Position numbers and translations under genes: made by a program. DNA of 64,000 bases from a virus. The first letter of the stretch is position 1. Each line of letters opens with the position of its first letter. The stretch lies in IMG/VR virus record IMGVR_UViG_3300009370_000003. One strand, given 5' to 3'. The notes beneath the pieces are model-generated. The model ran no database searches, was not told where the DNA came from, and was given only the letters and a program-made list of their open reading frames with translations. Shown in pieces: positions 6,195 to 62,589 of this stretch.

Positions 6195-7399
6195 AGCTCT
6201 TCTCCTAAATTCAATGAACGAGCTAATCTAATTGCAGAACCTATTGCTGTTCCAGCGTCATTTGCAACTGGGTCAACAAAGAATTGATAGTCAGGGAAAG
6301 CGTCTAGATACTTTGCATTGTTCGTGCAGTTCAACGCATACCCACCACTCAACAAAATGTTTTTGCAGTCGGGGTTATTATCTATTCCTTTCTGTATTAA
6401 CTTACAAGTTAAATCATATGAATTCTGTTCTATAAGATTGCACATGGAATGTATTGAGATATCAGGATAGTCACTATCCTTTTGGTATTCGTGTATTGCA
6501 GCTGCACCCATAACTTTACCTGCGGAGCGACCTAACTTATCAAATCCAAAATACATAGAAGCAGCTGAGAAGTTCATACCATTACTTGGTGCAGAACTAA
6601 TCACTATCTCTGCGTCTAATCCTTCTAAAGTAAGTTCGGGTGTATAGGTTAAAGCATGCTTCATTTCATTAGGGAAACACCTGTTAGTCAGCTGATCTAG
6701 TGACCTCATATTACTTAGTCGCTGGTATTGCAACTTGGGGTGTTTAAAAGGACTGCACAAATAGATACTCTCTACTTCTTGATAGTTCGGATAATCTTTA
6801 TGGAATCGACATGCACCACCACCGTCTTGAACGATACAGATAGCTTCCTCTTCTTCCTCAAAGTATTCACTAAAGTAATACCCACACTCTGCATGATAGA
6901 TATGGTGTTCTATCTCATAGTGGAATTCCTCTAGACCTAATTGCTTTGCAACAGTTGCGTGCATGTCATCGTCGCGAGGCGAATCGGTATAGGAGTGTTC
7001 AACCCCGTTATACTTAAAGACTGGTTTGCTCTCAATGTTCTCACCCCACTCCCCGAAGTGTTCTTTATACTTCTCTTTGATTGCTTGTATGCGCTCATAG
7101 CTGAGTTGTTCTTCTTTACAGAACTCTAGGATTTCTCTTTGTAGCTTTCTATTCTTTTGAGAGAGATTTTCAAATCCCCAATCATATATCCTGCGGTCAA
7201 ACGAAGCACCAATGAAATGGTCGGGTTGTTCAATGTTTTTACTCTCTATGATATGAGAGTGCATGTGACTGTCGTCAGGACTGTAATGCTTTGCTCTACG
7301 AAATCTATCTTCGTAGTATAAGAAATCTACTTCCCACTTGTCAGTATCAAACTGTGCAAGGGAAGTGTCATGACTCGAATTGTATCCAATGATTTTCAT
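6191..7399 (-). CDS. carbamoyltransferase N-terminal (Kae1-like) domain
   Basis: HDTS, EDRF.R.KH, HHIYHA, DGGG, GKVMG, SGGYALNC and DAGTAIG motifs. Confidence 0.88.
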   Translation of the reverse strand: MKIIGYNSSHDTSLAQFDTDKWEVDFLYYEDRFRRAKHYSPDDSHMHSHIIESKNIEQPDHFIGASFDRRIYDWGFENLSQKNRKLQREILEFCKEEQLSYERIQAIKEKYKEHFGEWGENIESKPVFKYNGVEHSYTDSPRDDDMHATVAKQLGLEEFHYEIEHHIYHAECGYYFSEYFEEEEEAICIVQDGGGACRFHKDYPNYQEVESIYLCSPFKHPKLQYQRLSNMRSLDQLTNRCFPNEMKHALTYTPELTLEGLDAEIVISSAPSNGMNFSAASMYFGFDKLGRSAGKVMGAAAIHEYQKDSDYPDISIHSMCNLIEQNSYDLTCKLIQKGIDNNPDCKNILLSGGYALNCTNNAKYLDAFPDYQFFVDPVANDAGTAIGSAIRLARSLNLGEEL

Positions 7400-9572: not shown

Positions 9573-9821
9573 ACGGAGCCTCCGTCATTATCATTATTAT
9601 TTAGATAGATTATAACCATCATTACTATTACCAACAGTGCTATTAAAGTATTCATACTCGTTGCGACCAATCCTCACTGAATAAACATAACCTTTCTTGA
9701 CCGTCACATGTCTCATAGACAAACTGACTGGATAATATTTGTGTCACCTTTCCCGTGTGTTCTCTGTCAAAGTAAGGTTCTCTGTGAATTATCTTATCAC
9801 CTACGCTCGGGAACTTTGGCT

Positions 9822-10070
9822 TCACTGTGCAATATATCCTGCTAGGGTTCTCAATAAAAACATTAACCCCATAGCATTCAGCATAATCAACGCACGGTCT
9901 TTCCATAGTATAGAGACCACCAACCACAAGGACACCCCTATGGTAGACGCTACAAGGTCAAAGACAGTAAACCCATCTACCCCTCTAACCGACATAGCAG
10001 ATAGAATAAAGATACTTGCTACCCACTTAAGATACCAATCAGCAGTAAACTTTTTATGCTTCTCTTTCAT
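9822..10070 (-). CDS. small multi-pass membrane protein
   Basis: DWYLKWVAS...W.DRALI.LN; three TM segments. Confidence 0.7.
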   Translation of the reverse strand: MKEKHKKFTADWYLKWVASIFILSAMSVRGVDGFTVFDLVASTIGVSLWLVVSILWKDRALIMLNAMGLMFLLRTLAGYIAQ

Positions 10071-10218
10071 ATTAGGAAAACAATCCCGCTATTAAAAGAT
10101 AAGGCAAACCTAAAAAGAATATCATGATAGCATACAAGCCGTAGATAAGAAGTTCCAACCGTCTAAAACGATAGTCTCTTTCGTCAAATAACTTATCAAT
10201 TTTCTTTGTCATGACACC

Positions 10219-10256
10219 ATTATACCATATACATACCCACACTGACTAGAGGGTTT
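10219..10256 (-). promoter_or_regulatory. promoter with AAACCCTCTAGTCA upstream element
   Basis: TAGTCA-N18-TATAAT; the identical 14-mer also occurs at 47329 and 54219. Confidence 0.7.
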
Positions 10257-10680
10257 ATTGAGAAAACCGTTCCATGACTAGGTCAAAAAGAAAGTCCTCG
10301 TGCTTCCGTGCTGGATTCTCATACATGTATTCACCTCGTGCAGCCTGACGAACATGTATCATTTCGTGTGAAAGAGTCTCCAAGAGCGGCACTCGTACAC
10401 CATACATGTCCTTGCGGGCTAGTTCAACTACAATATCCTTACAATTATTTTCGGTATCTATGTCATTACACGGATAACAACACCCCACGGCGTCTCTGAA
10501 CTCGTCTAAGAACTGATTATGCACAATAATATCCAGTCGTATGTTATCGTGTTTATCCAGTCCTAGTATAGGAATAGAGTGCAGAATAAACTCTTCTATC
10601 TTATCATGCTCTCTCACTTCTCCCCCGCGAGGGCCAGATATATCAATTTTAATACTCATATTTTTCCTTTCACGGGTCAT
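10255..10680 (-). CDS. HExxH zinc-metallopeptidase-like protein
   Basis: LETLSHEMIHVRQ. Confidence 0.65.
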   Translation of the reverse strand: MTRERKNMSIKIDISGPRGGEVREHDKIEEFILHSIPILGLDKHDNIRLDIIVHNQFLDEFRDAVGCCYPCNDIDTENNCKDIVVELARKDMYGVRVPLLETLSHEMIHVRQAARGEYMYENPARKHEDFLFDLVMERFSQ

Positions 10681-10973
10681 TTTTTCCCGAGAATTTTTTT
10701 TGGGACTGGGTTTATTAGCCGGTCAAAGATATTCACTAGGGGGCTTGAGGCCTCTCTCAGATTTTATAGGAGTCCCAAAACACTGTTTAAAGGCCCTCAG
10801 GCTGAGTCTAAGAGACCTTGCGGTACTCTACTATATGACCTTTCGCGCCGTATTTAATTGCAACAGCGGCCGCGTCTGCGAGCTTCAGCGGTGTTTTTGA
10901 CCGTAGTTCTAACTCGTAGGAGCCATCTATTGTTATAATCTTAGGATTTATAGTATAAATTTCGAATAAAGAT

Positions 10974-11150
10974 TCACTCATCTTTTGATTTATTATCCTT
11001 GTAATGGGCGCTGATACGGGCCGGCAATACTAATACATCATTGCAGAATTCACAGCAGCGGCCGTTGGTGAATAGGGGATAGGGATTGTGACCCATATCC
11101 AAGAGGTTGTCATCACATATGACACATTGTTTCATTTCATCTAATATCAT
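10974..11150 (-). CDS. small Cys-rich zinc-binding protein (58 aa, not in the track)
   Basis: CVIC...GHNPYP...RCCEFCN; lies directly downstream of a sigma70-type promoter. Confidence 0.65.
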   Translation of the reverse strand: MILDEMKQCVICDDNLLDMGHNPYPLFTNGRCCEFCNDVLVLPARISAHYKDNKSKDE

Positions 11151-11157
11151 AGTCTGT

Positions 11158-11187
11158 ATAGTAGCACATATAGCGAGGCGCTGTCAA
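11158..11187 (-). promoter_or_regulatory. sigma70-type early promoter
   Basis: TTGACA-N18-TACTAT with a TG extension. Confidence 0.75.
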
Positions 11188-11319
11188 GGCCTATTATGTG
11201 ACCCTCTGAGACCCTTTGTTTATAGGGGTTTCAGAGGTATGCACTGTTTTGGTGCATAAATTGGTCTTGAGAACCACCCTATCCAATCCTTAGATGGCTC
11301 TCAAGATAACATAATATGT

Positions 11320-11456
11320 GGGAATCTCTCTCATGTTCCCGCGACCTTCTCGGTAGATAACCCCAGTGACTTCATTTATAGTGAGAGATTGTCACGATAG
11401 GAGTCTCTCACAGGCGCAATCCACGGTCATATCCACTGGTCAATACCGTTTCATAT
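11320..11456 (-). ncRNA. candidate structured non-coding RNA
   Basis: follows a TAGTAT-N17-TATAAT promoter (11463-11491); first ATG stops after 4 codons; three nested helices plus a 3' hairpin. Confidence 0.4.
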
Positions 11457-55001: not shown

Positions 55002-55412
55002 CTATGAAATTTTGATAGAAACTGGTTTGTCTTCTTCGGGAATGACTCTCTCTAAGTTGACACTCAATATACCGTTTTTATACACTGCACTGGCGATTTC
55101 TACATCGTCTGCAAGTGTAAATCTACGGTTGAATGCTCTAGAAGCTAATCCTTTATGGACAAAGTCCTTCTCAGAATCTTCTGAACTACCCTCGATAACA
55201 AGAATGTTTTTCTCTTTAGTAACAGAAATTTCCTTCTTATCGAATCCAGCAACAGCAAGTTCAACGGTGAAATTTTCATCGTCTACTTTTACCACATTGT
55301 ATGGTGGATAGTTTGATTGTGAGATTGTAGACATTCTTTCGAGGTCTTCGAAATATCTATCAAATCCTATTGCGAACGGTCTGAATTGACCAAATATATC
55401 TAAATGCGTCAT
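55002..55412 (-). CDS. small heat-shock protein (Hsp20/IbpA family)
   Basis: IGFDR, YPPYN, ELAVAGF, HKGLA.R.F and NGIL. Confidence 0.96.
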   Translation of the reverse strand: MTHLDIFGQFRPFAIGFDRYFEDLERMSTISQSNYPPYNVVKVDDENFTVELAVAGFDKKEISVTKEKNILVIEGSSEDSEKDFVHKGLASRAFNRRFTLADDVEIASAVYKNGILSVNLERVIPEEDKPVSIKIS

Positions 55413-55473: not shown

Positions 55474-55530
55474 TATTTATAATACTTATATACCTATTAT
55501 ATGGGTTTTTTCAAAAATTTCAAGAGGGTT
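55474..55530 (-). promoter_or_regulatory. stacked hsp20 promoters (sigma32-like/sigma70-like plus T4 late)
   Basis: CTTGAAA...CCCATATAAT, then TATAAATA at 55474-55481. Confidence 0.6.
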
Positions 55531-57427
55531 TTTGTAATTTTCTTAATTTCCTATCAATTAAAGGTGCATATATCTTAACTGGAATTTCCTTTCCTTTAAC
55601 ATTTATTTCGTCAAGATACTGCCATTCACAATCAACTTGTTTCTTTGTGAACTCTGACATTATAATTGGAGTGTCATATTGCCTTGTTTGGACTTCGAGT
55701 CTAGCTGCAAGGTTAACAGCGTCACCGACAACTGAATAATCGAATCGTGCTTCACTTCCCATGTTTCCGACAATGCATGGGCCTGTATTAATTCCCGTGC
55801 CAATGACTACTGGTGGTAAATCTAATCCTTCCCTTTCTATATCTATATTCATTTGTTCTGTTAATAGTTCTATTTCTATTGCAGATTTCAAAGCCATTTG
55901 TGCATGGTCAGGGCAATCAAGAGGAGCTCCCCAAAATGCCATCAAGCAGTCACCCATATATTTGTCGATGGTTCCACCATTTGCTAGGACAATTTTAGAC
56001 ATACCGTCTAGGAATCTATTAATTAGTTCCACTAATCCTTCGGGGTCGTCATTCTTCATGTATGCTTCTGATATTGGAGTGAACCCAACTATGTCTGCGA
56101 AGAGGAATGAAAGTTCTCTTCTATCTCCACCAAGTTTCAATAATTCAGGGTTTTTTTGGAGTTCTTCAACCATGTCAGGAGATAAATATTTTTGAAACTG
56201 CTTCTTAATAAGTTCTTTGAGTTGATAAGTTGTATAGTATTTGTTGAAGGAAGCATGTCCGAAAACTATAATGGAGGCAATCGATGAGTAGAAAGTATCG
56301 AAAAGAACGAGAGATGAAGACCACCAATAGAGAGACCCACCCACCTGAAATCCAACGAAGACTAGAGAAGCTATCCCCGCAACGGCTGTGGGAAGTGTGT
56401 AGACCATTACCAATATTCCTAGAAGGACTGTCAGCAGAAGAGCGAGAGATAAGAATTCAAGATAGTAGGATTGTTGTATTCGAACATCTTGCAAAACGGT
56501 TTGGAGAAGTGAGGCTTGAACTTTATGAGGATACATTACACCCACTGGGGTTGAAACTGGATTATTAAGTCCCTCTGCAGTTAATCCCCAAATCAGTATC
56601 TTACCTTCAAGGTCTGAGTTGGGTAAATCCATTGCAGATATTCTCTCAAAATCGAACCAGTATCCAATTTGAACATCTGCAGTTGAGGTTGTTTCTATGG
56701 GAGGGCTCCTACCCATTCGAATCCACTCGATTCCAGCTTCTTCCGTGACTCGTGTTTGATAATTCTTATGGTCACCAAATGCACGAAGAACCTCTAGTGC
56801 AACCGAAGGATATACAACATCATTTGCAGATACTATTAATGGTGCTGAACGGATTGTCCCGTCAAAGTTTGGTGTTCCTGAAATACTAGGTGTTGTGACT
56901 GTCACTCCTGAACCATACGAATTCTGTTTCAGGATATCAACTGGTGAAGCAATGCCAGAGAAGCTCCAAATATGGTCTTTTATCTCGCCGTCACCGAACA
57001 CCGAAGTCTTAACAAATGGTGCAGACCCAGTATCTAATTGAGTTGTGGGTGCAGCTGATAAAATCGATAGCCGATTAACTAATCCTTCTGCAAAAGCTTC
57101 GTCCCCTGAAAACCTATCAGGGTTTTTAAACAACTGGGTAAATACATGAGTGTTGGTATAATGTGATTCCAACATTATATCTGCATAGATATTTCTCGGC
57201 CATGGGTATTGACCATACTTCTGTAGTGACTTCTCGTCTATGTCTACTAGAACTATGTTATCGGTTTGTTCTATTTCTTTTGATTGGTGTAGGAAGTCAA
57301 ACCAAGACCATGTAACATTCTCAATAAGATATGGATTCCATACCTTAAGTCCGAATAATAACGAGACAGTTATTAATACTGTCTTCCACGAGTACATTAT
57401 GTTATCCAACAAACTGGATATACACAC
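55520..57427 (-). CDS. CHASE2-domain membrane adenylate cyclase (class III; probable start MYSW at 57397)
   Basis: IVLVDIDE.SL..YG.YPWPR (CHASE2), TMs, FADIVGFT, DKYMGD, GINTG and YSVVGDAVNLAARLE. Confidence 0.93.
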   Translation of the reverse strand: MCISSLLDNIMYSWKTVLITVSLLFGLKVWNPYLIENVTWSWFDFLHQSKEIEQTDNIVLVDIDEKSLQKYGQYPWPRNIYADIMLESHYTNTHVFTQLFKNPDRFSGDEAFAEGLVNRLSILSAAPTTQLDTGSAPFVKTSVFGDGEIKDHIWSFSGIASPVDILKQNSYGSGVTVTTPSISGTPNFDGTIRSAPLIVSANDVVYPSVALEVLRAFGDHKNYQTRVTEEAGIEWIRMGRSPPIETTSTADVQIGYWFDFERISAMDLPNSDLEGKILIWGLTAEGLNNPVSTPVGVMYPHKVQASLLQTVLQDVRIQQSYYLEFLSLALLLTVLLGILVMVYTLPTAVAGIASLVFVGFQVGGSLYWWSSSLVLFDTFYSSIASIIVFGHASFNKYYTTYQLKELIKKQFQKYLSPDMVEELQKNPELLKLGGDRRELSFLFADIVGFTPISEAYMKNDDPEGLVELINRFLDGMSKIVLANGGTIDKYMGDCLMAFWGAPLDCPDHAQMALKSAIEIELLTEQMNIDIEREGLDLPPVVIGTGINTGPCIVGNMGSEARFDYSVVGDAVNLAARLEVQTRQYDTPIIMSEFTKKQVDCEWQYLDEINVKGKEIPVKIYAPLIDRKLRKLQKPS

Positions 57428-57630
57428 CAGTAAGGATTAGCTACTCCTAAAAGCCACAATATAAAAATCCATAAGGGAATCTGTATCCAAGTTTTTCCTT
57501 TAGACCATTCCCTGAACCTGATGGCGTGCGGAACCATCTTATTAAACAACCATTGTTTCATTAGGAGACCAGTCGATAAAACGACAGTGCTAATCCAACC
57601 AATAAGGTTCCTAATACTATAAAAACCCAT
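57397..57630 (-). CDS. small Trp-rich membrane protein (start probably MKQW at ~57561)
   Basis: NPYWCVYPVCWI C-terminus; TM segment. Confidence 0.5.
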   Translation of the reverse strand: MGFYSIRNLIGWISTVVLSTGLLMKQWLFNKMVPHAIRFREWSKGKTWIQIPLWIFILWLLGVANPYWCVYPVCWIT

Positions 57631-57671
57631 TTGATATGAAATTTATAATTTATTATTTTATCCCACATAAT

Positions 57672-58547
57672 TTAATCTTGTGTTACTGTAATTGTGCAAC
57701 CGCCGACTGTATAACAAGCTTGAGACAAAGTATATGACTGAGCTGAGCCTGCGTGTTGCGTTAAATCTAAAGTAGTTCCATAAGTACCATTCAAAGTAAT
57801 ATTTGCAGTATGTTGAGCATTACCGTCTTGAAGATAGTCAACAATATTAGAGTCATTATGAACTGTTAAGTTTAATGTCTTTGAACTGTCTCCTTTCTGT
57901 TTTCCAAACACATCATTGTCATCTCCATAGAGATAGATTCTTGCTGAATGTCCGTCACAATTATTGTTTGCACAATTCCTTTGCTGTCCTTTTATTGAAT
58001 TATCACTACCATGGATATCTATGGTGACAGTATGATTACCGCCGTCATTATTATCTATTGACCATGTAGTGTCGTTACGGTTTGAGAATTCATATCCTTG
58101 GGCCCACCAAAGTGTATTGTCATCTCCATATGCTATGTGGAACTGAATGTCGTTTTTACCGCAGGACGAATTTTTCGTGCAGTTTTGGTAGAGTTTAAGT
58201 GATTGTCTTTCTCCGTCAATATCGCCACCCCAACCATAACCTGAGCCCCAGCTGGGGGAATCATTTGCGTATCCAATTTCATTATTGTTTCCTTTTTGTA
58301 AGATTTCTATATCGTAATCGTCTCCGTCTCCAAGTGAGAAAAAGATATTGTTGTTGAATCCTTCTTGGTCGATAGTTAGGTCGAGATTATCTCCACCCGC
58401 TGTGACCTGATTAATATTGATACGGTTATCATCATCAGCAAATGCTTTAATTGCTGAAAATAACACCATGAGTGTAAAACACCCTATGAATAATTTTGCT
58501 GACCAGTCCAATTTTCCCTCAGTTTGTTTCACCCACAAATCCACCAA
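57672..58547 (-). CDS. secreted curlin-like repeat protein
   Basis: AFA signal-peptide cleavage; I.Q.G..N repeats (DQEGFNN, LQKGNNN, LYGDDN, LQDGN). Confidence 0.7.
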   Translation of the reverse strand: MVDLWVKQTEGKLDWSAKLFIGCFTLMVLFSAIKAFADDDNRININQVTAGGDNLDLTIDQEGFNNNIFFSLGDGDDYDIEILQKGNNNEIGYANDSPSWGSGYGWGGDIDGERQSLKLYQNCTKNSSCGKNDIQFHIAYGDDNTLWWAQGYEFSNRNDTTWSIDNNDGGNHTVTIDIHGSDNSIKGQQRNCANNNCDGHSARIYLYGDDNDVFGKQKGDSSKTLNLTVHNDSNIVDYLQDGNAQHTANITLNGTYGTTLDLTQHAGSAQSYTLSQACYTVGGCTITVTQD

Positions 58548-58700
58548 ACAAGTAAAACAAGAATTACACCTTCAGCCCATGCTATCCAAAGTGCTTGGTA
58601 ATCTGTAAGGTTGAATCTATCGATAAACTTCCAACAAAGTCTTTCGTGCCATTCTAAAAAGTCCTTTAAATATTTCATATTTACTCCTAATGTCTTTTAT

Positions 58701-59849
58701 TTAGTTAGTTTGCCTGATTACAATTTCAATATTGGTGTCTCCTTGACCGAAATCAATAATCCCTTCATACCCGTCTAAAGTTAAATCTAAGTATCCTAAA
58801 CCTCCAGCTGCAATGATTATCTCAATCTTTCCATTCACATCTCTATAGAGATATAGGTCTCCGTCTTGGACAAATACATTAAACTGTGAGTCTTTATTGA
58901 ATCCTTGGACTGCACCTTTAATATTGAATTGTCCTAGGGTTGCTCCACCACCAGTTGAGCCTGACCCTTTAATCTTTTTATCTAGTGCTTCTACCACATC
59001 TAATAAATCTGTCAAGAAGTCAACTCCAAGCATATCTATATCAAGCTCAGTGAAATCATCTTCCATGGTATCTTCGAGTTCGTCTGACTCTAAATCATTG
59101 AACTCTAAAAAGTCTACATCTAGTATTCCAGTATCGTCATTTTGGTCGTCAGCGACAGCGTCTTCTATTGCTTGTTTAACTTCCGCAGGTGGAGAAACAA
59201 TAAACATGTTATCAATCATTGAAGGTGTTATGTTTTGAATAATAACATTTTGTGTTGGAGGAGATTCCAAAGTAGAAACCATAGTTGCCTGATATGGAAG
59301 ATTGAGTAAGGTTTCTCCACCCTCATTAAATACTTTTATCTCACCACTAGAACCACCTGTTTCATCAGGTAGCAGAATCACGAGTGTTCTCCCGAGCTCG
59401 TCAATAGTAGTTGTAAAATCTGTGCCGTTGATTGCTATTTGAGCTGTCGGCGTTGAAATATCTATGTTTGCTTTCTTTATTTTTTTCCCTTTCCCTGAAG
59501 CAAACCTTGCTGTTCCTTGAACCATTCTCAAGGACATTTTTGATAATGAGGGATTAGGGTCATAGTATACTTCGTCTATGTATACTACTGTGTGTTCGAT
59601 TAAATCAAGTTCCTCTTCGTCTAAGAACTCAATCTTCATTCTGCCGTTTACTGTTTCGGCTTCGTCATACAAAAAAATGTCACCACCGACATTATTCTGT
59701 TGCACTTCATTGTTTCTAACTATCTGGCCTATACCAGTAGACTCAACAATGTCTCCAATGGGGTCTGCAAATGCGACCCCACTGAATAACAATATATTAA
59801 GAATCGTTAGCTGCGTCTTTCTGATTGATTTGAATAACTGCATTATCAC
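58701..59849 (-). CDS. FecR-domain periplasmic protein with an acidic tail
   Basis: IG.I....G, I.FLD, G..RF.SG and I.TPTA.IAINGTDF. Confidence 0.85.
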   Translation of the reverse strand: MIMQLFKSIRKTQLTILNILLFSGVAFADPIGDIVESTGIGQIVRNNEVQQNNVGGDIFLYDEAETVNGRMKIEFLDEEELDLIEHTVVYIDEVYYDPNPSLSKMSLRMVQGTARFASGKGKKIKKANIDISTPTAQIAINGTDFTTTIDELGRTLVILLPDETGGSSGEIKVFNEGGETLLNLPYQATMVSTLESPPTQNVIIQNITPSMIDNMFIVSPPAEVKQAIEDAVADDQNDDTGILDVDFLEFNDLESDELEDTMEDDFTELDIDMLGVDFLTDLLDVVEALDKKIKGSGSTGGGATLGQFNIKGAVQGFNKDSQFNVFVQDGDLYLYRDVNGKIEIIIAAGGLGYLDLTLDGYEGIIDFGQGDTNIEIVIRQTN

Positions 59850-60576
59850 TTGTTATATCTAATGTAATTAAAGCATTTGGAGTTGCACAACTGTTTCCAG
59901 CTCCACTTACACATGTTCCTGATATCTGATTGATATCCACATCTGCACTATCTCCTGTTAATTCAACCGTCATTTCGTTTGCACCATCTTTCTGTAATGT
60001 ATTAACATTATTTGAGTCACCAGTTATATCCCAGTTCCAAACAACATCATCGGATTCAAAATCCAAATCAAATACATTCGAAGAACCCACTAAGACTAAA
60101 TCTGCATTTAATCTTTCTGCTCCTAAACCATATCCTTGGTCAATGTCAAAGATGTTTGAATCTCCTTGAACAGTGAAAAGATAATCAGTAGCATCTGCTG
60201 ACCCTACATTACCAATGTTCCAGTCTATCTTGTTCGAATCACCTGTGAAGGTTAATGTATATTTCGAACTGTCTGCAACAACGGGCCCGAATAAGACATT
60301 CTGATTACCAGTAAAGTCTAAATCGAACTCCAAAGTTTGTCCTGTAATAAGCATGGCGGTTATGCTTCCGCTGGAACCATCGTTACCACCTATCTTATTA
60401 CCAAAACCTATTTGGTCAATGTATATTTTTAATGTATCACCCGTTTGGGTAATCTTAATTTCATTGTCATCAGTGGCTGCTCCGAAAACGATAGGCGAAG
60501 CCAATAATAATATTGCTCCTAATAAACTAATTAGTTTCTTCATTTTCGTTATACCCCTCGGGGAACTTTTCGTCAT
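59797..60576 (-). CDS. secreted curlin-like beta-solenoid protein (probable start MKKLIS at 60543)
   Basis: signal peptide; periodic QIGFGN, FTGNQN, FTGDSN, VQGDSN, LVGSSN and ITGDSN. Confidence 0.7.
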   Translation of the reverse strand: MTKSSPRGITKMKKLISLLGAILLLASPIVFGAATDDNEIKITQTGDTLKIYIDQIGFGNKIGGNDGSSGSITAMLITGQTLEFDLDFTGNQNVLFGPVVADSSKYTLTFTGDSNKIDWNIGNVGSADATDYLFTVQGDSNIFDIDQGYGLGAERLNADLVLVGSSNVFDLDFESDDVVWNWDITGDSNNVNTLQKDGANEMTVELTGDSADVDINQISGTCVSGAGNSCATPNALITLDITSDNAVIQINQKDAANDS

Positions 60577-61456
60577 ACCCCGTTATGTTCCAAAAACCTC
60601 TTTCGTGTCCTTGGTATACTAATTCCAGCACTCCAGCTTCAATAGCTGTTCGCACTGCGTAAGTCACTGACTCATTATTTCCAATGCCATCCTCTATCTC
60701 TATTAATTGAGTTCCTTGTTCTACGAAACGGAAAACATCGCCTCCCGTTCCATAACTCAATATAGTCTTTCGAGTTTGGACATTTAATAAAACCTCTCCA
60801 GTAAGAACTGATACAGCTCTTATTGAAATGGTCACGACATCTTGACGATATCGTTTACTATAACCAATACCTAGTGTCCGTGCGCCTCGTCCACCTGTTC
60901 TTATATTGGTATCATAACCAATTACTCCACCCTCTATTATCATACCCGCAAAGAGTAGTGGTTGTATTCCTTCGGCTTCGTCTTTACCTTCAGCCTTAGC
61001 AAATTCTGTTCTTGCAGACCTAATAATCTGCCTTTCTCTAACTAAGTGGTCTATACCACTTCGTTCTACTACCCTAAACCAAGTACCATTTCCAGCCGTT
61101 TTAAGAGCGTCTATGACCATTTCTTGTCCACCTTGGGTCACTGCAGTAGAGAAGCTTGCAATGTTGTCTACGGACTTCCTCTGTCCAGTCTTATCTAAGA
61201 ACTGATAAACTGCAACTACTGGCATCTCTTCTGCTGGTGGTAATCTTAATAGTTCAAGAAATGAGGGTAGTCTTACTACTTCGGGGTCTTCCACACAAAT
61301 ATATTTTCGTGCAAACTGTTTCTTTACCCCAGTGTATACATCTTTCTTAAACCCTTCGTCCCAGCGACCACAATTTTGTGGGTCGTCTGTCCACTTAGGA
61401 ATTGAAGCACAGCTACTCAATACTAAAAGTAATGCTAATGAAAGAACCTTAATCAT
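60527..61456 (-). CDS. csgG: curli secretion channel lipoprotein
   Basis: LSSC lipobox, VAVYQFLDKTGQRK, FSTAVTQG, WFRVVER, ERQIIR and EGGVIGYD. Confidence 0.95.
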   Translation of the reverse strand: MIKVLSLALLLVLSSCASIPKWTDDPQNCGRWDEGFKKDVYTGVKKQFARKYICVEDPEVVRLPSFLELLRLPPAEEMPVVAVYQFLDKTGQRKSVDNIASFSTAVTQGGQEMVIDALKTAGNGTWFRVVERSGIDHLVRERQIIRSARTEFAKAEGKDEAEGIQPLLFAGMIIEGGVIGYDTNIRTGGRGARTLGIGYSKRYRQDVVTISIRAVSVLTGEVLLNVQTRKTILSYGTGGDVFRFVEQGTQLIEIEDGIGNNESVTYAVRTAIEAGVLELVYQGHERGFWNITGYDEKFPEGYNENEETN

Positions 61457-61992
61457 TAGGTTCCTCCGTCGCCACCCCCGCCATCGACAGGAATCGCGTC
61501 AGGGTCTTGTGCAAAATTACCAGTTCCTATAGGTATTTCAATAATGGTTGATGTTCCGTCTTCACCTATAATGGTCATTCGTATGAACTCAACCCCTGCT
61601 TCATCTGTTAATACTTCCCAAGTAATAGTGTTTCCTTCTAGAATAAATGAACCAAATGAACTTGAATTATCATTTGAGAACATAGATTCAACTAACTGTT
61701 TTGCAAGTGTAGCATAAATTCTGCTTTCTAAGTTTCTAATAAATTTTGCAAGAACCGTATTGTCTGCTTCTCTTTCTGCAGCTTTCCTAGCTGACTCCAA
61801 AGCATCTTCGATTTGTTTCTTCCGAGAAAATTCCTGATTCTCGATAGTTAAATAATGAGCACCCTGACCCTGTTTACTAAACGATGGATTTCCAAATTTA
61901 TGAACAATCTCATCTGCGTAAACATTCGTTGCATGTAGAAATAAAACCCCTACAATGATAATGCTACTTACGACTTTTTTTATTACTGACAT
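61456..61992 (-). CDS. csgF: curli assembly factor
   Basis: signal peptide, then EIVHKFGNPSF; F..NLESRIY..L. Confidence 0.85.
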   Translation of the reverse strand: MSVIKKVVSSIIIVGVLFLHATNVYADEIVHKFGNPSFSKQGQGAHYLTIENQEFSRKKQIEDALESARKAAEREADNTVLAKFIRNLESRIYATLAKQLVESMFSNDNSSSFGSFILEGNTITWEVLTDEAGVEFIRMTIIGEDGTSTIIEIPIGTGNFAQDPDAIPVDGGGGDGGT

Positions 61993-62242
61993 TCTTTTCC
62001 TCTTGTTCTTGCTGTTCCTTATATTCTAGCACTGTGTTAACCTTCTGCTGTAAACGAATCAAGTCGTTATCTAACATTCTAATTTGGTCAAGAAGTCTTA
62101 TAAGGATTGTATTAGATTTTCCTAGAGCAGGTTTTAGTTCTTGTGTGACAAATTTCCACACAAAAAATATAAAATACCCCATGCCCAGTGCGAGAACCAC
62201 GGGAAAACCGAATTCTGCAATCATCTGAGCTATGGTATTCAT
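61964..62242 (-). CDS. single-TM coiled-coil protein
   Basis: EFGFP...FIFF...IRMLDNDLIR. Confidence 0.75.
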   Translation of the reverse strand: MNTIAQMIAEFGFPVVLALGMGYFIFFVWKFVTQELKPALGKSNTILIRLLDQIRMLDNDLIRLQQKVNTVLEYKEQQEQEEKNVSNKKSRK

Positions 62243-62535
62243 TAGTCCCTACGAGAATCTATCTTCTCATCTTCTATAAAATTCTCTGCACGAGCAATTC
62301 TATCAATGTCTGGCTTTAAATCTAAAGCCGAAGAAACCAATAAGTCAATCTTAATCATATCATTGTTCATCATTCGAACACGATTCTCTAAAGATTCCAT
62401 AATACCAGCCAATCCTTTTACTTGTCCTACCACTGACTCTAAAATATACTTCAAAGTCAGGAATATAAAGAAGGCCATAATCACTGCACTTCCTATAGGA
62501 ATGCCCACTTCACTCAAAAATGTTAATATATCCAT
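62242..62535 (-). CDS. single-TM coiled-coil protein (paralog of the downstream gene)
   Basis: EVGIP...FIFL...VRMMNNDMIK. Confidence 0.75.
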   Translation of the reverse strand: MDILTFLSEVGIPIGSAVIMAFFIFLTLKYILESVVGQVKGLAGIMESLENRVRMMNNDMIKIDLLVSSALDLKPDIDRIARAENFIEDEKIDSRRD

Positions 62536-62589
62536 ACCATTATTTATGAAAATGAGCTCTGCTTTGGAACAAATATTCCAAAATTGAAC

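Follow-up and report, generated by a model that had tools for sequence, protein, structure and literature searches.

The window analysed here, a 64,000-nucleotide stretch of viral DNA (IMG/VR record IMGVR_UViG_3300009370_000003), carries on its minus strand, at 55520-62535, a compact gene module that combines a curli-type secretion pore, two curlin-repeat proteins, a secreted FecR-domain protein and a CHASE2 adenylate cyclase. We identify it as the type VIII secretion (curli) module of pelagiphages that Wittmers et al. reported in 2022 (mSystems, PMC9599517), here in an uncultured HTVC008M-like T4-type myophage. These authors reported a cluster in podo- and myo-pelagiphages consisting of one or two genes labelled 'HK', CsgF, CsgG, CsgA/B, FecR, a second CsgA/B and an adenylate cyclase, and discussed aggregation, a shield against superinfection, sibling capture and import as its possible roles. 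An earlier sequence-only reading of this DNA had proposed a complete phage system that builds amyloid-like fibres on the infected cell and reports to the cytoplasm through cyclic AMP (cAMP). As Wittmers et al. had described the full cluster with the same hypotheses, this interpretation is a rediscovery of a known system and adds little as a discovery; its premise that CsgA/B are missing from marine myophages is out of date, since the published module includes CsgA/B-like proteins. Partial notices of the module are older still (HTVC008M 2013; Zaragoza-Solas et al. 2020, PMC7029224), and Buchholz et al. 2022 (PMC9004378) proposed a role in lysis, stating csgA/B to be missing. Our literature search found no experimental follow-up of the pelagiphage curli module.

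Gene content, transcription signals and conservation

Every open reading frame (ORF) named by the sequence-only reading is present in the ORF list of the window, and adjoining genes, from the first to the cyclase, overlap or lie at most 22 nt apart (all coordinates below are on the minus strand). Pfam domain calls were judged against curated cut-offs, whilst the signal peptides of CsgF, FecR and both curlins, as well as the lipobox of CsgG, were assigned by reading the sequences. The proposed gene content and tight packing were both borne out, with scores above cut-off for CsgF, CsgG, the two curlin-repeat proteins, FecR and the CHASE2 cyclase. As had also been stated, none of the ten ORFs gave a Pfam match to CsgE, CsgC or CsgD; the same three are missing from alphaproteobacterial systems too (PMC9599517).

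The pore gene encodes a 309-residue CsgG lipoprotein (60527-61456; lipobox LSSC at residues 13-16; Pfam CsgG 172.1 bits, cut-off 20.8), which aligns over residues 61-295 (235 residues) with E. coli CsgG (4uv3) at E 9e-45. Its SFSTAV stretch aligns to the NFSTAV constriction loop of the E. coli protein, and the loop Phe is kept. A reading as the Caulobacter holdfast system HfaA/HfaB/HfaD was rejected, as NCBIfam gave 163.7 bits for CsgG against 26.9 bits for HfaB. Between the lipid-anchor Cys and the start of E. coli CsgG similarity, the phage protein has about 45 extra residues (residues 16-60), three of them Cys. The overlapping csgF (61456-61992) encodes 178 residues with a signal peptide (Pfam CsgF 41.1 bits, cut-off 25.8; phrog_35372, E 3e-37), with no direct phmmer match to solved CsgF chains. 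Its predicted cleavage site is followed by FGNPSF, which we take to resemble the NPxF motif at the N-terminus of E. coli CsgF.

Curlin-repeat protein 1, the conserved partner of CsgG (59797-60576; 259 residues, the ATG at 60543 being the likelier start), matches Curlin_rpt at 25.8 bits (cut-off 20.7). Its family alignment displays invariant GxxN turns spaced 22-33 residues apart, with ITQTGDTLKIYIDQIGFGNKIGG as the canonical first unit, and among PDB sequences the family profile matches E. coli CsgA best (8enq, E 1.4e-3). The AlphaFold2 model is all-beta with paired strands (predicted local distance difference test, pLDDT, 76.6; predicted template modelling score, pTM, 0.71). Plain Foldseek with this model gave no match at E <= 0.001. 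VIA-align over PDB representatives placed SufD-type beta-helices at Z about 16 (root-mean-square deviation, rmsd, 3.5) and Pontibacter CsgA at Z 11.8. In a second look, the top match was Pontibacter CsgA 8c50 (Z 17.0, 197 aligned residues, 22% identity, rmsd 9.0), statistically tied with SufD-type beta-helices at about 10% identity.

Curlin-repeat protein 2 (57672-58547, 291 residues; Curlin_rpt 21.0 bits, cut-off 20.7) is a variable paralogue: it matches the protein 1 family by hhalign at a probability of 99.0% (E 6.5e-18), and was not detected by tblastn in several divergent loci (L020, L022, L023). Both proteins have signal peptides and conserved Cys pairs. Taken together, domain scores, the CsgA profile match, clear paralogy and the solenoid model of protein 1 support the earlier proposal that both repeat proteins are curlin-like, as well as a curlin-like beta-solenoid for protein 1.

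Ahead of csgF, the module opens with two small single-pass membrane proteins, A (62242-62535, 97 residues; phrog_18771, E 8e-27) and B (61964-62242, 92 residues; phrog_18771, E 9e-30), each with an N-terminal transmembrane segment followed by a coiled coil. Their common PHROG and their alignment confirm them as the paralogous pair that had been claimed. Members of this family are 82-116 residues long. Protein A is without histidine in the window copy and in 27 of 31 orthologues, and protein B, whose window copy likewise has none, shows no invariant histidine. Across 25 members of the family, no Pfam match to HisKA or HATPase was found at E up to 1. The label 'histidine kinase' is therefore not supported, as these proteins have neither a conserved histidine nor a kinase domain; their equivalence to the published 'HK' genes is one of position only. 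The nearest named ESM Atlas clusters of protein B, YvrJ (0.88) and Holin_BhlA (0.83), both fall below the 0.9 level and are leads only, as are a weak Pfam match to YvrJ in 5 of 25 members (best E 0.038) and a weak Rz-like spanin match in PHROGs. T4 holin T gave no match in three related phage genomes, and neither did the control.

Upstream of the module, the terminator that had been noted is confirmed as an intrinsic-terminator-like hairpin that closes the preceding unit (62618-62593; 11-bp stem with 4 G-C pairs, 4-nt loop, T run), and several related loci have a similar hairpin and T run immediately ahead of their first module gene. It is followed by a promoter motif of the T4 late type, CATAAATA (62541-62548), with 5 nt between it and the first ATG. 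ATAAATA is the core of the T4 late promoter. The earlier reading of this motif as a late promoter holds: of 26 distinct loci, 20 have ATAAATA no more than 40 nt ahead of the first gene, against 0-1 of about 30 loci for each internal gene (background 0.011 per upstream window). The module thus forms a single compact unit preceded by a terminator and a conserved promoter motif of the late type, which fits a single late transcript. In most loci, exactly 5 nt separate the end of the motif from the first ATG (62533-62548 in the window; also L002, L005, L007, L012, L016, L018, L019 and L031), and no Shine-Dalgarno sequence is visible ahead of the first gene. With the motif so near the start codon, the module mRNA may be leaderless or have little leader. 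A perfect TATAAATA at 55474-55481, just past the cyclase stop and 62 nt upstream of a small heat-shock protein gene (55002-55412), probably gives that gene a late promoter of its own.

We collected 23 related loci by a CsgG search of viral contigs and 13 more by a FecR profile search of genome contigs. About 35 related phage loci, plus HTVC008M and Melnitz, share the gene order, which answers the proposed synteny check in the affirmative: every locus that is long enough runs from small proteins A and B through CsgF, CsgG, curlin 1 and FecR to the cyclase, usually with the 49-residue gene described below and curlin 2 between FecR and the cyclase. The published order occurs in the window, in L001-L037 and in L041, and is kept down to about 30-50% protein identity (range across loci 30-100%). 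The cultured Pelagibacter phage HTVC008M and the OM43 phage Melnitz, which infect two host classes, have the same arrangement, and the Melnitz record is annotated with a 'curlin associated repeat protein', a 'FecR domain protein' and an 'adenylate/guanylate cyclase'. In the ocean, the module is expressed in metatranscriptomes, accounts for some 0.1% of the viral proteins assembled from viromes, and has gene frequencies of about 1:1 across stations (PMC9599517).

A bacterial source of the whole module was considered and rejected: the 'bacterial' genome matches at 40-73% identity are phage contigs binned into metagenome-assembled genomes (MAGs), and the FecR profile search (4471 matches) was swamped by phage homologues. 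Module-bearing phage contigs (L025-L037) sit in MAGs labelled Sphingobacteriales, Synechococcus, Planctomycetaceae, Rhodobacterales, Pelagibacter and others, bins that could falsely suggest that these bacteria own a curli-cyclase cluster. One locus (L029) has curlin 1 in three pieces (6511-7259) and the cyclase in two (9775-11392), reflecting either frameshifted genes or assembly errors.

The small transmembrane ORFs that had been listed fare unequally. A 49-residue protein with a C-terminal transmembrane segment (58529-58678) stands, as tblastn showed at least 12 loci to encode it immediately downstream of FecR (30-51% identity). Two overlapping ORFs of 35 and 77 residues (57397-57668) are doubtful as genes: the former had no homologue by tblastn of the related loci, and the latter (57397-57630) had a single one (80% identity, L032:5660-5824). 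The stop codon of the 77-residue ORF (57397-57399) lies where the first ATG codon of the cyclase (57397-57395) begins. As its one relative lies between the two first module genes of L032, the 77-residue ORF looks like a small movable ORF.

The FecR-CHASE2 pair and its proposed cAMP signal

The FecR-domain protein (58701-59849, 382 residues) consists of a signal peptide, a FecR beta domain, an acidic linker and a C-terminal part (Pfam FecR 32.5 bits, cut-off 24; phrog_37870, E 1e-58). Residues 30-210 were modelled by AlphaFold2 at pLDDT 70-83, the C-terminal ~170 residues being without a confident model, and Foldseek matched this region to an anti-sigma factor (4m0h) and to the PupR signalling domain (6ovk), both at E about 1e-3 and probability 1.0. 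The N-terminus is a signal peptide instead of an anti-sigma domain, the FecR domain starting at residue 67, and a Pfam search of the module ORFs found no sigma factor or TonB-dependent transducer in the module. We therefore do not read this protein as a FecR-type anti-sigma factor regulating iron uptake. Kinship of the FecR protein with the curlins drew no support when its family profile was compared with those of the two curlins (probabilities below 1%).

The last gene encodes a class III adenylate cyclase with a CHASE2 domain (55520-57427; 635 residues from a GTG, the ATG at 57397 being the likelier start; CHASE2 100.1 bits, Guanylate_cyc 65.6 bits), whose best solved relatives are Cya2, CyaB and CyaC-type cyclases. 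Residues D445, K489, D493, S565, N572 and R576 are conserved across 24 orthologues (N572 in 21 of them), a set that covers metal binding (two Asp), adenine specificity (Lys with Ser) and the transition state (Asn and Arg). At the position where the Cya2 chains 6fht (Lys) and 2w01 (Glu) differ, the phage enzyme has Lys. Given this conservation of catalytic residues, the phage protein is very probably an active adenylate cyclase.

We surveyed 121 alphaproteobacterial genomes using the coordinates of 118 CHASE2, 208 FecR (150 of them listed) and 31 CsgG matches. At least 25 of the 118 CHASE2 genes have one of the listed FecR matches within 3.3 kb, in many cases on the same strand and some 220 bp upstream; we estimate the chance expectation at about 1. 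None of the 31 CsgG matches lies within 10 kb of a CHASE2 gene. At five bacterial loci (L067, L071-L074), full-length CHASE2 cyclases that match the phage enzyme at 30-32% identity (E 1e-74 to 1e-93) lie next to FecR homologues, and FecR-CHASE2 pairs have been published before (PMC5192318, PMC5498481). In the phage module, the FecR and cyclase genes are separated by the 49-residue gene and curlin 2. This distribution marks FecR and CHASE2 as a pre-existing alphaproteobacterial gene pair that was imported into the phage cluster; with the pair found in bacteria and no CsgG near CHASE2 there, the phage cluster therefore joins two bacterial modules, a curli secretion set and a FecR-CHASE2 sensor pair. 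FecR is accordingly better read as a partner of CHASE2 than as an iron regulator.

Several bacterial loci show other neighbours of FecR and CHASE2. One alphaproteobacterial locus (L071:116-6448) encodes a Slam-like outer-membrane protein (tetratricopeptide repeats, TPR, plus SlipAM), then a 909-residue FecR-domain protein with a weak TbpB-type C-terminal barrel match, then a CHASE2 adenylate cyclase; in L067, L038 and L040, a TPR protein lies just ahead of FecR. Slam-like barrels as a regular third partner of the pair were rejected, with only 2 of 20 SlipAM matches beside a CHASE2 gene, and are kept as a lead; an outer-membrane translocon may have FecR-domain proteins as its cargo or partners. 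The host lineage has a CHASE2 protein of its own: in a SAR11-family genome (L062:3049-7919), it has a SpoIIE/PP2C phosphatase output in place of a cyclase, followed by a 435-residue protein of unknown type and a 504-residue FecR-domain protein.

We then considered what might read a phage-made cAMP signal. HTVC008M, Melnitz and a 151-kb relative yielded no cyclic-nucleotide (cNMP)-binding domain. Of 41 SAR11-family genomes, many of them incomplete, two had one and the other 39 gave no match. With the usual cNMP-binding domains not found, the phage cAMP has no obvious reader, which is the main gap in the idea that the module reports through cAMP. Class III cyclase matches occur in three of the 41 genomes. 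On two of these cyclase contigs, CsgG lies 3-4 kb from the cyclase, just as it does in the phage module, and synteny shows one of the two to be phage-like; the third match is a fragment with seven in-frame TGA stops. CsgG occurs only on the two CsgG-cyclase contigs. Outside phage-type or fragmentary contigs, neither a class III cyclase nor CsgG was recognised in the SAR11 hosts searched.

Candidate functions of the module

We favour the published fibre or surface-coat model with the FecR-CHASE2 sensor attached, at a probability of roughly 55%. Under this model, the curlin-like proteins would cross the inner membrane by Sec, leave through the CsgG pore and stack into fibres or a surface coat, whilst the periplasmic FecR-domain protein, together with the CHASE2 domain, would sense an envelope or secretion-related cue and so set cAMP synthesis; export, fibre formation and cAMP signalling are all proposals from sequence. 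Several observations weigh against it, besides the lack of a cAMP reader. Cells infected by Melnitz, which carries the full module, did not clump (Buchholz et al., PMC9004378), and the module has no CsgE-like gate or specificity factor. A single Curlin_rpt unit per protein passes the Pfam threshold, SufD-type beta-helices superpose far better on the curlin 1 model (rmsd 3.6-3.9) than CsgA does (rmsd 9.0), and the curlin Cys pairs, if oxidised in the periplasm, could hinder passage through the narrow CsgG channel. Finally, a curlin gene stands between the phage FecR and cyclase, unlike the usual bacterial adjacency.

Ranked second, and in our view improbable, is a reading in which sensing comes first and fibre aggregation is not the point. 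The pore and surface beta-solenoids would form the input arm of trans-envelope signalling, a cue from outside or from the envelope passing from CsgG/CsgF and the curlin-like proteins to the FecR protein and on to the CHASE2 cyclase, in a manner resembling S. meliloti NsrA. Such a route would account for Melnitz infections without clumping and for the retention of cyclase and FecR with the pore across very divergent phages. It also draws on FecR-CHASE2 pairs being a bacterial sensor module, on the established outer membrane-to-cAMP route from NsrA to CyaD1/D2/CyaK (PMC7529298), on the FecR domain having the fold that docks on outer-membrane transducers (PupR), and on the Slam-like barrel adjoining the CHASE2 gene in two sampled bacteria, in one with FecR. 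Yet no cAMP reader was found in the phage genomes or hosts searched, podovirus versions often lack the cyclase but retain pore, curlin and FecR (PMC9599517), and the absence of CsgG within 10 kb of CHASE2 in the 121 bacterial genomes leaves a pore-cyclase coupling without cellular precedent. Just as speculative is a chimeric trans-envelope sensor, in which the bacterial FecR-CHASE2-cyclase pair was re-plumbed onto the curli pore and surface beta-solenoids, producing a private cAMP signal in a host with neither class III cyclases nor cNMP-binding proteins; a putative phage-encoded reader of this signal would adjust late functions, such as lysis timing, to outside conditions.

Control of cell opening, after the published hypothesis of Buchholz et al. 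2022 (PMC9004378), ranks third and is more doubtful again. Here, the small proteins would act like holins or antiholins and the CsgG/CsgF pore as an outer-membrane gate, which fits the late-type promoter ahead of the module, the ~95-residue single-pass coiled-coil form of the first two proteins and their weak YvrJ, Holin_BhlA and Rz-like spanin leads. However, every similarity to a lysis protein is below significance, a pore of roughly 1 nm in the outer membrane does not alone lyse a cell, and two conserved secreted curlin-repeat proteins and a cyclase are left unexplained.

Import, the alternative of Wittmers et al., seems to us highly unlikely. A pore left open without a CsgE gate would admit cofactors or nutrients, and FecR would be tied to iron; the idea was raised in PMC9599517, and CsgE is indeed not found among the module ORFs. 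Against this, the FecR protein is secreted and has no cytoplasmic anti-sigma domain, the module has neither a sigma factor nor a TonB-dependent receptor, the natural bacterial partner of FecR is CHASE2 rather than iron uptake, and the curlin-repeat proteins would again have no role. Least probable of all, and very unlikely, is that the genes are mere neighbours without joint function: the module does lie in a variable region of these phage genomes (PMC7029224), but about 35 loci, with identities as low as 30-50%, and phages of two host classes all keep one gene order, its genes overlap behind one shared promoter motif, and their frequencies are ~1:1 across ocean stations (PMC9599517).

Comparison with known systems

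With FecA-FecR-FecI and PupB-PupR, the phage module shares the periplasmic FecR/PupR fold modelled for the N-terminal half of its FecR protein (6ovk, 4m0h). In place of the anti-sigma domain and membrane anchor of those regulators, the phage protein has a cleavable signal peptide, and its module has no extracytoplasmic function (ECF) sigma factor or TonB-dependent transducer.

In S. meliloti, the FecR-domain gene SMc02177 probably adjoins cyaD1 (SMc02176). SMc02177 is dispensable for signal perception (PMC7529298, PMC5498481). The NsrA to CyaD1/CyaD2/CyaK to Clr pathway (PMC7529298, PMC5498481) shares with the phage an inner-membrane CHASE2 adenylate cyclase; its input depends on the outer-membrane protein NsrA, in place of which the phage module has CsgG, and its cAMP receptor, Clr, is known, whereas none was seen in the phage and host genomes searched. 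The Burkholderia 'BiofilmReg' operon and Pseudomonas PA4035/PA4036-type pairs (PMC5192318) likewise encode a periplasmic FecR-domain protein immediately before a CHASE2 sensor, but their output is a histidine kinase with a response regulator where the phage has a cyclase, and their FecR protein also has LysM.

Compared with E. coli curli (CsgA-CsgG), the phage module shares the CsgG lipoprotein pore (E 9e-45 to 4uv3), CsgF and secreted Q/N/G curlin-type repeat proteins with a beta-solenoid model. It differs in having no CsgE, CsgC or CsgD, in repeat proteins that are about twice as long, with GDSN-type turns, conserved Cys pairs and one Pfam-passing unit each, and in the ~45 additional CsgG residues after the lipid-anchor Cys. 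Moreover, its carrier is a lytic-type phage, which introduces it into a host without curli genes.

The closest system remains the pelagiphage module itself (PMC9599517), which has the same genes, order, host group and proposed roles; nothing essential differs, and the window holds another copy from an uncultured myophage. To its published description we add that the 'HK' label is unsupported, that the cyclase carries CHASE2 and that FecR and CHASE2 are an imported bacterial pair, together with a single conserved late-type promoter motif, a conserved 49-residue gene after FecR and a search of the host that turned up no canonical cAMP reader. Few biological entities in the sea are as abundant as SAR11 and its phages, and if infected cells do bear surface fibres or a sensor of this kind, the interactions of infected SAR11 with other cells, grazers and other phages would be changed.

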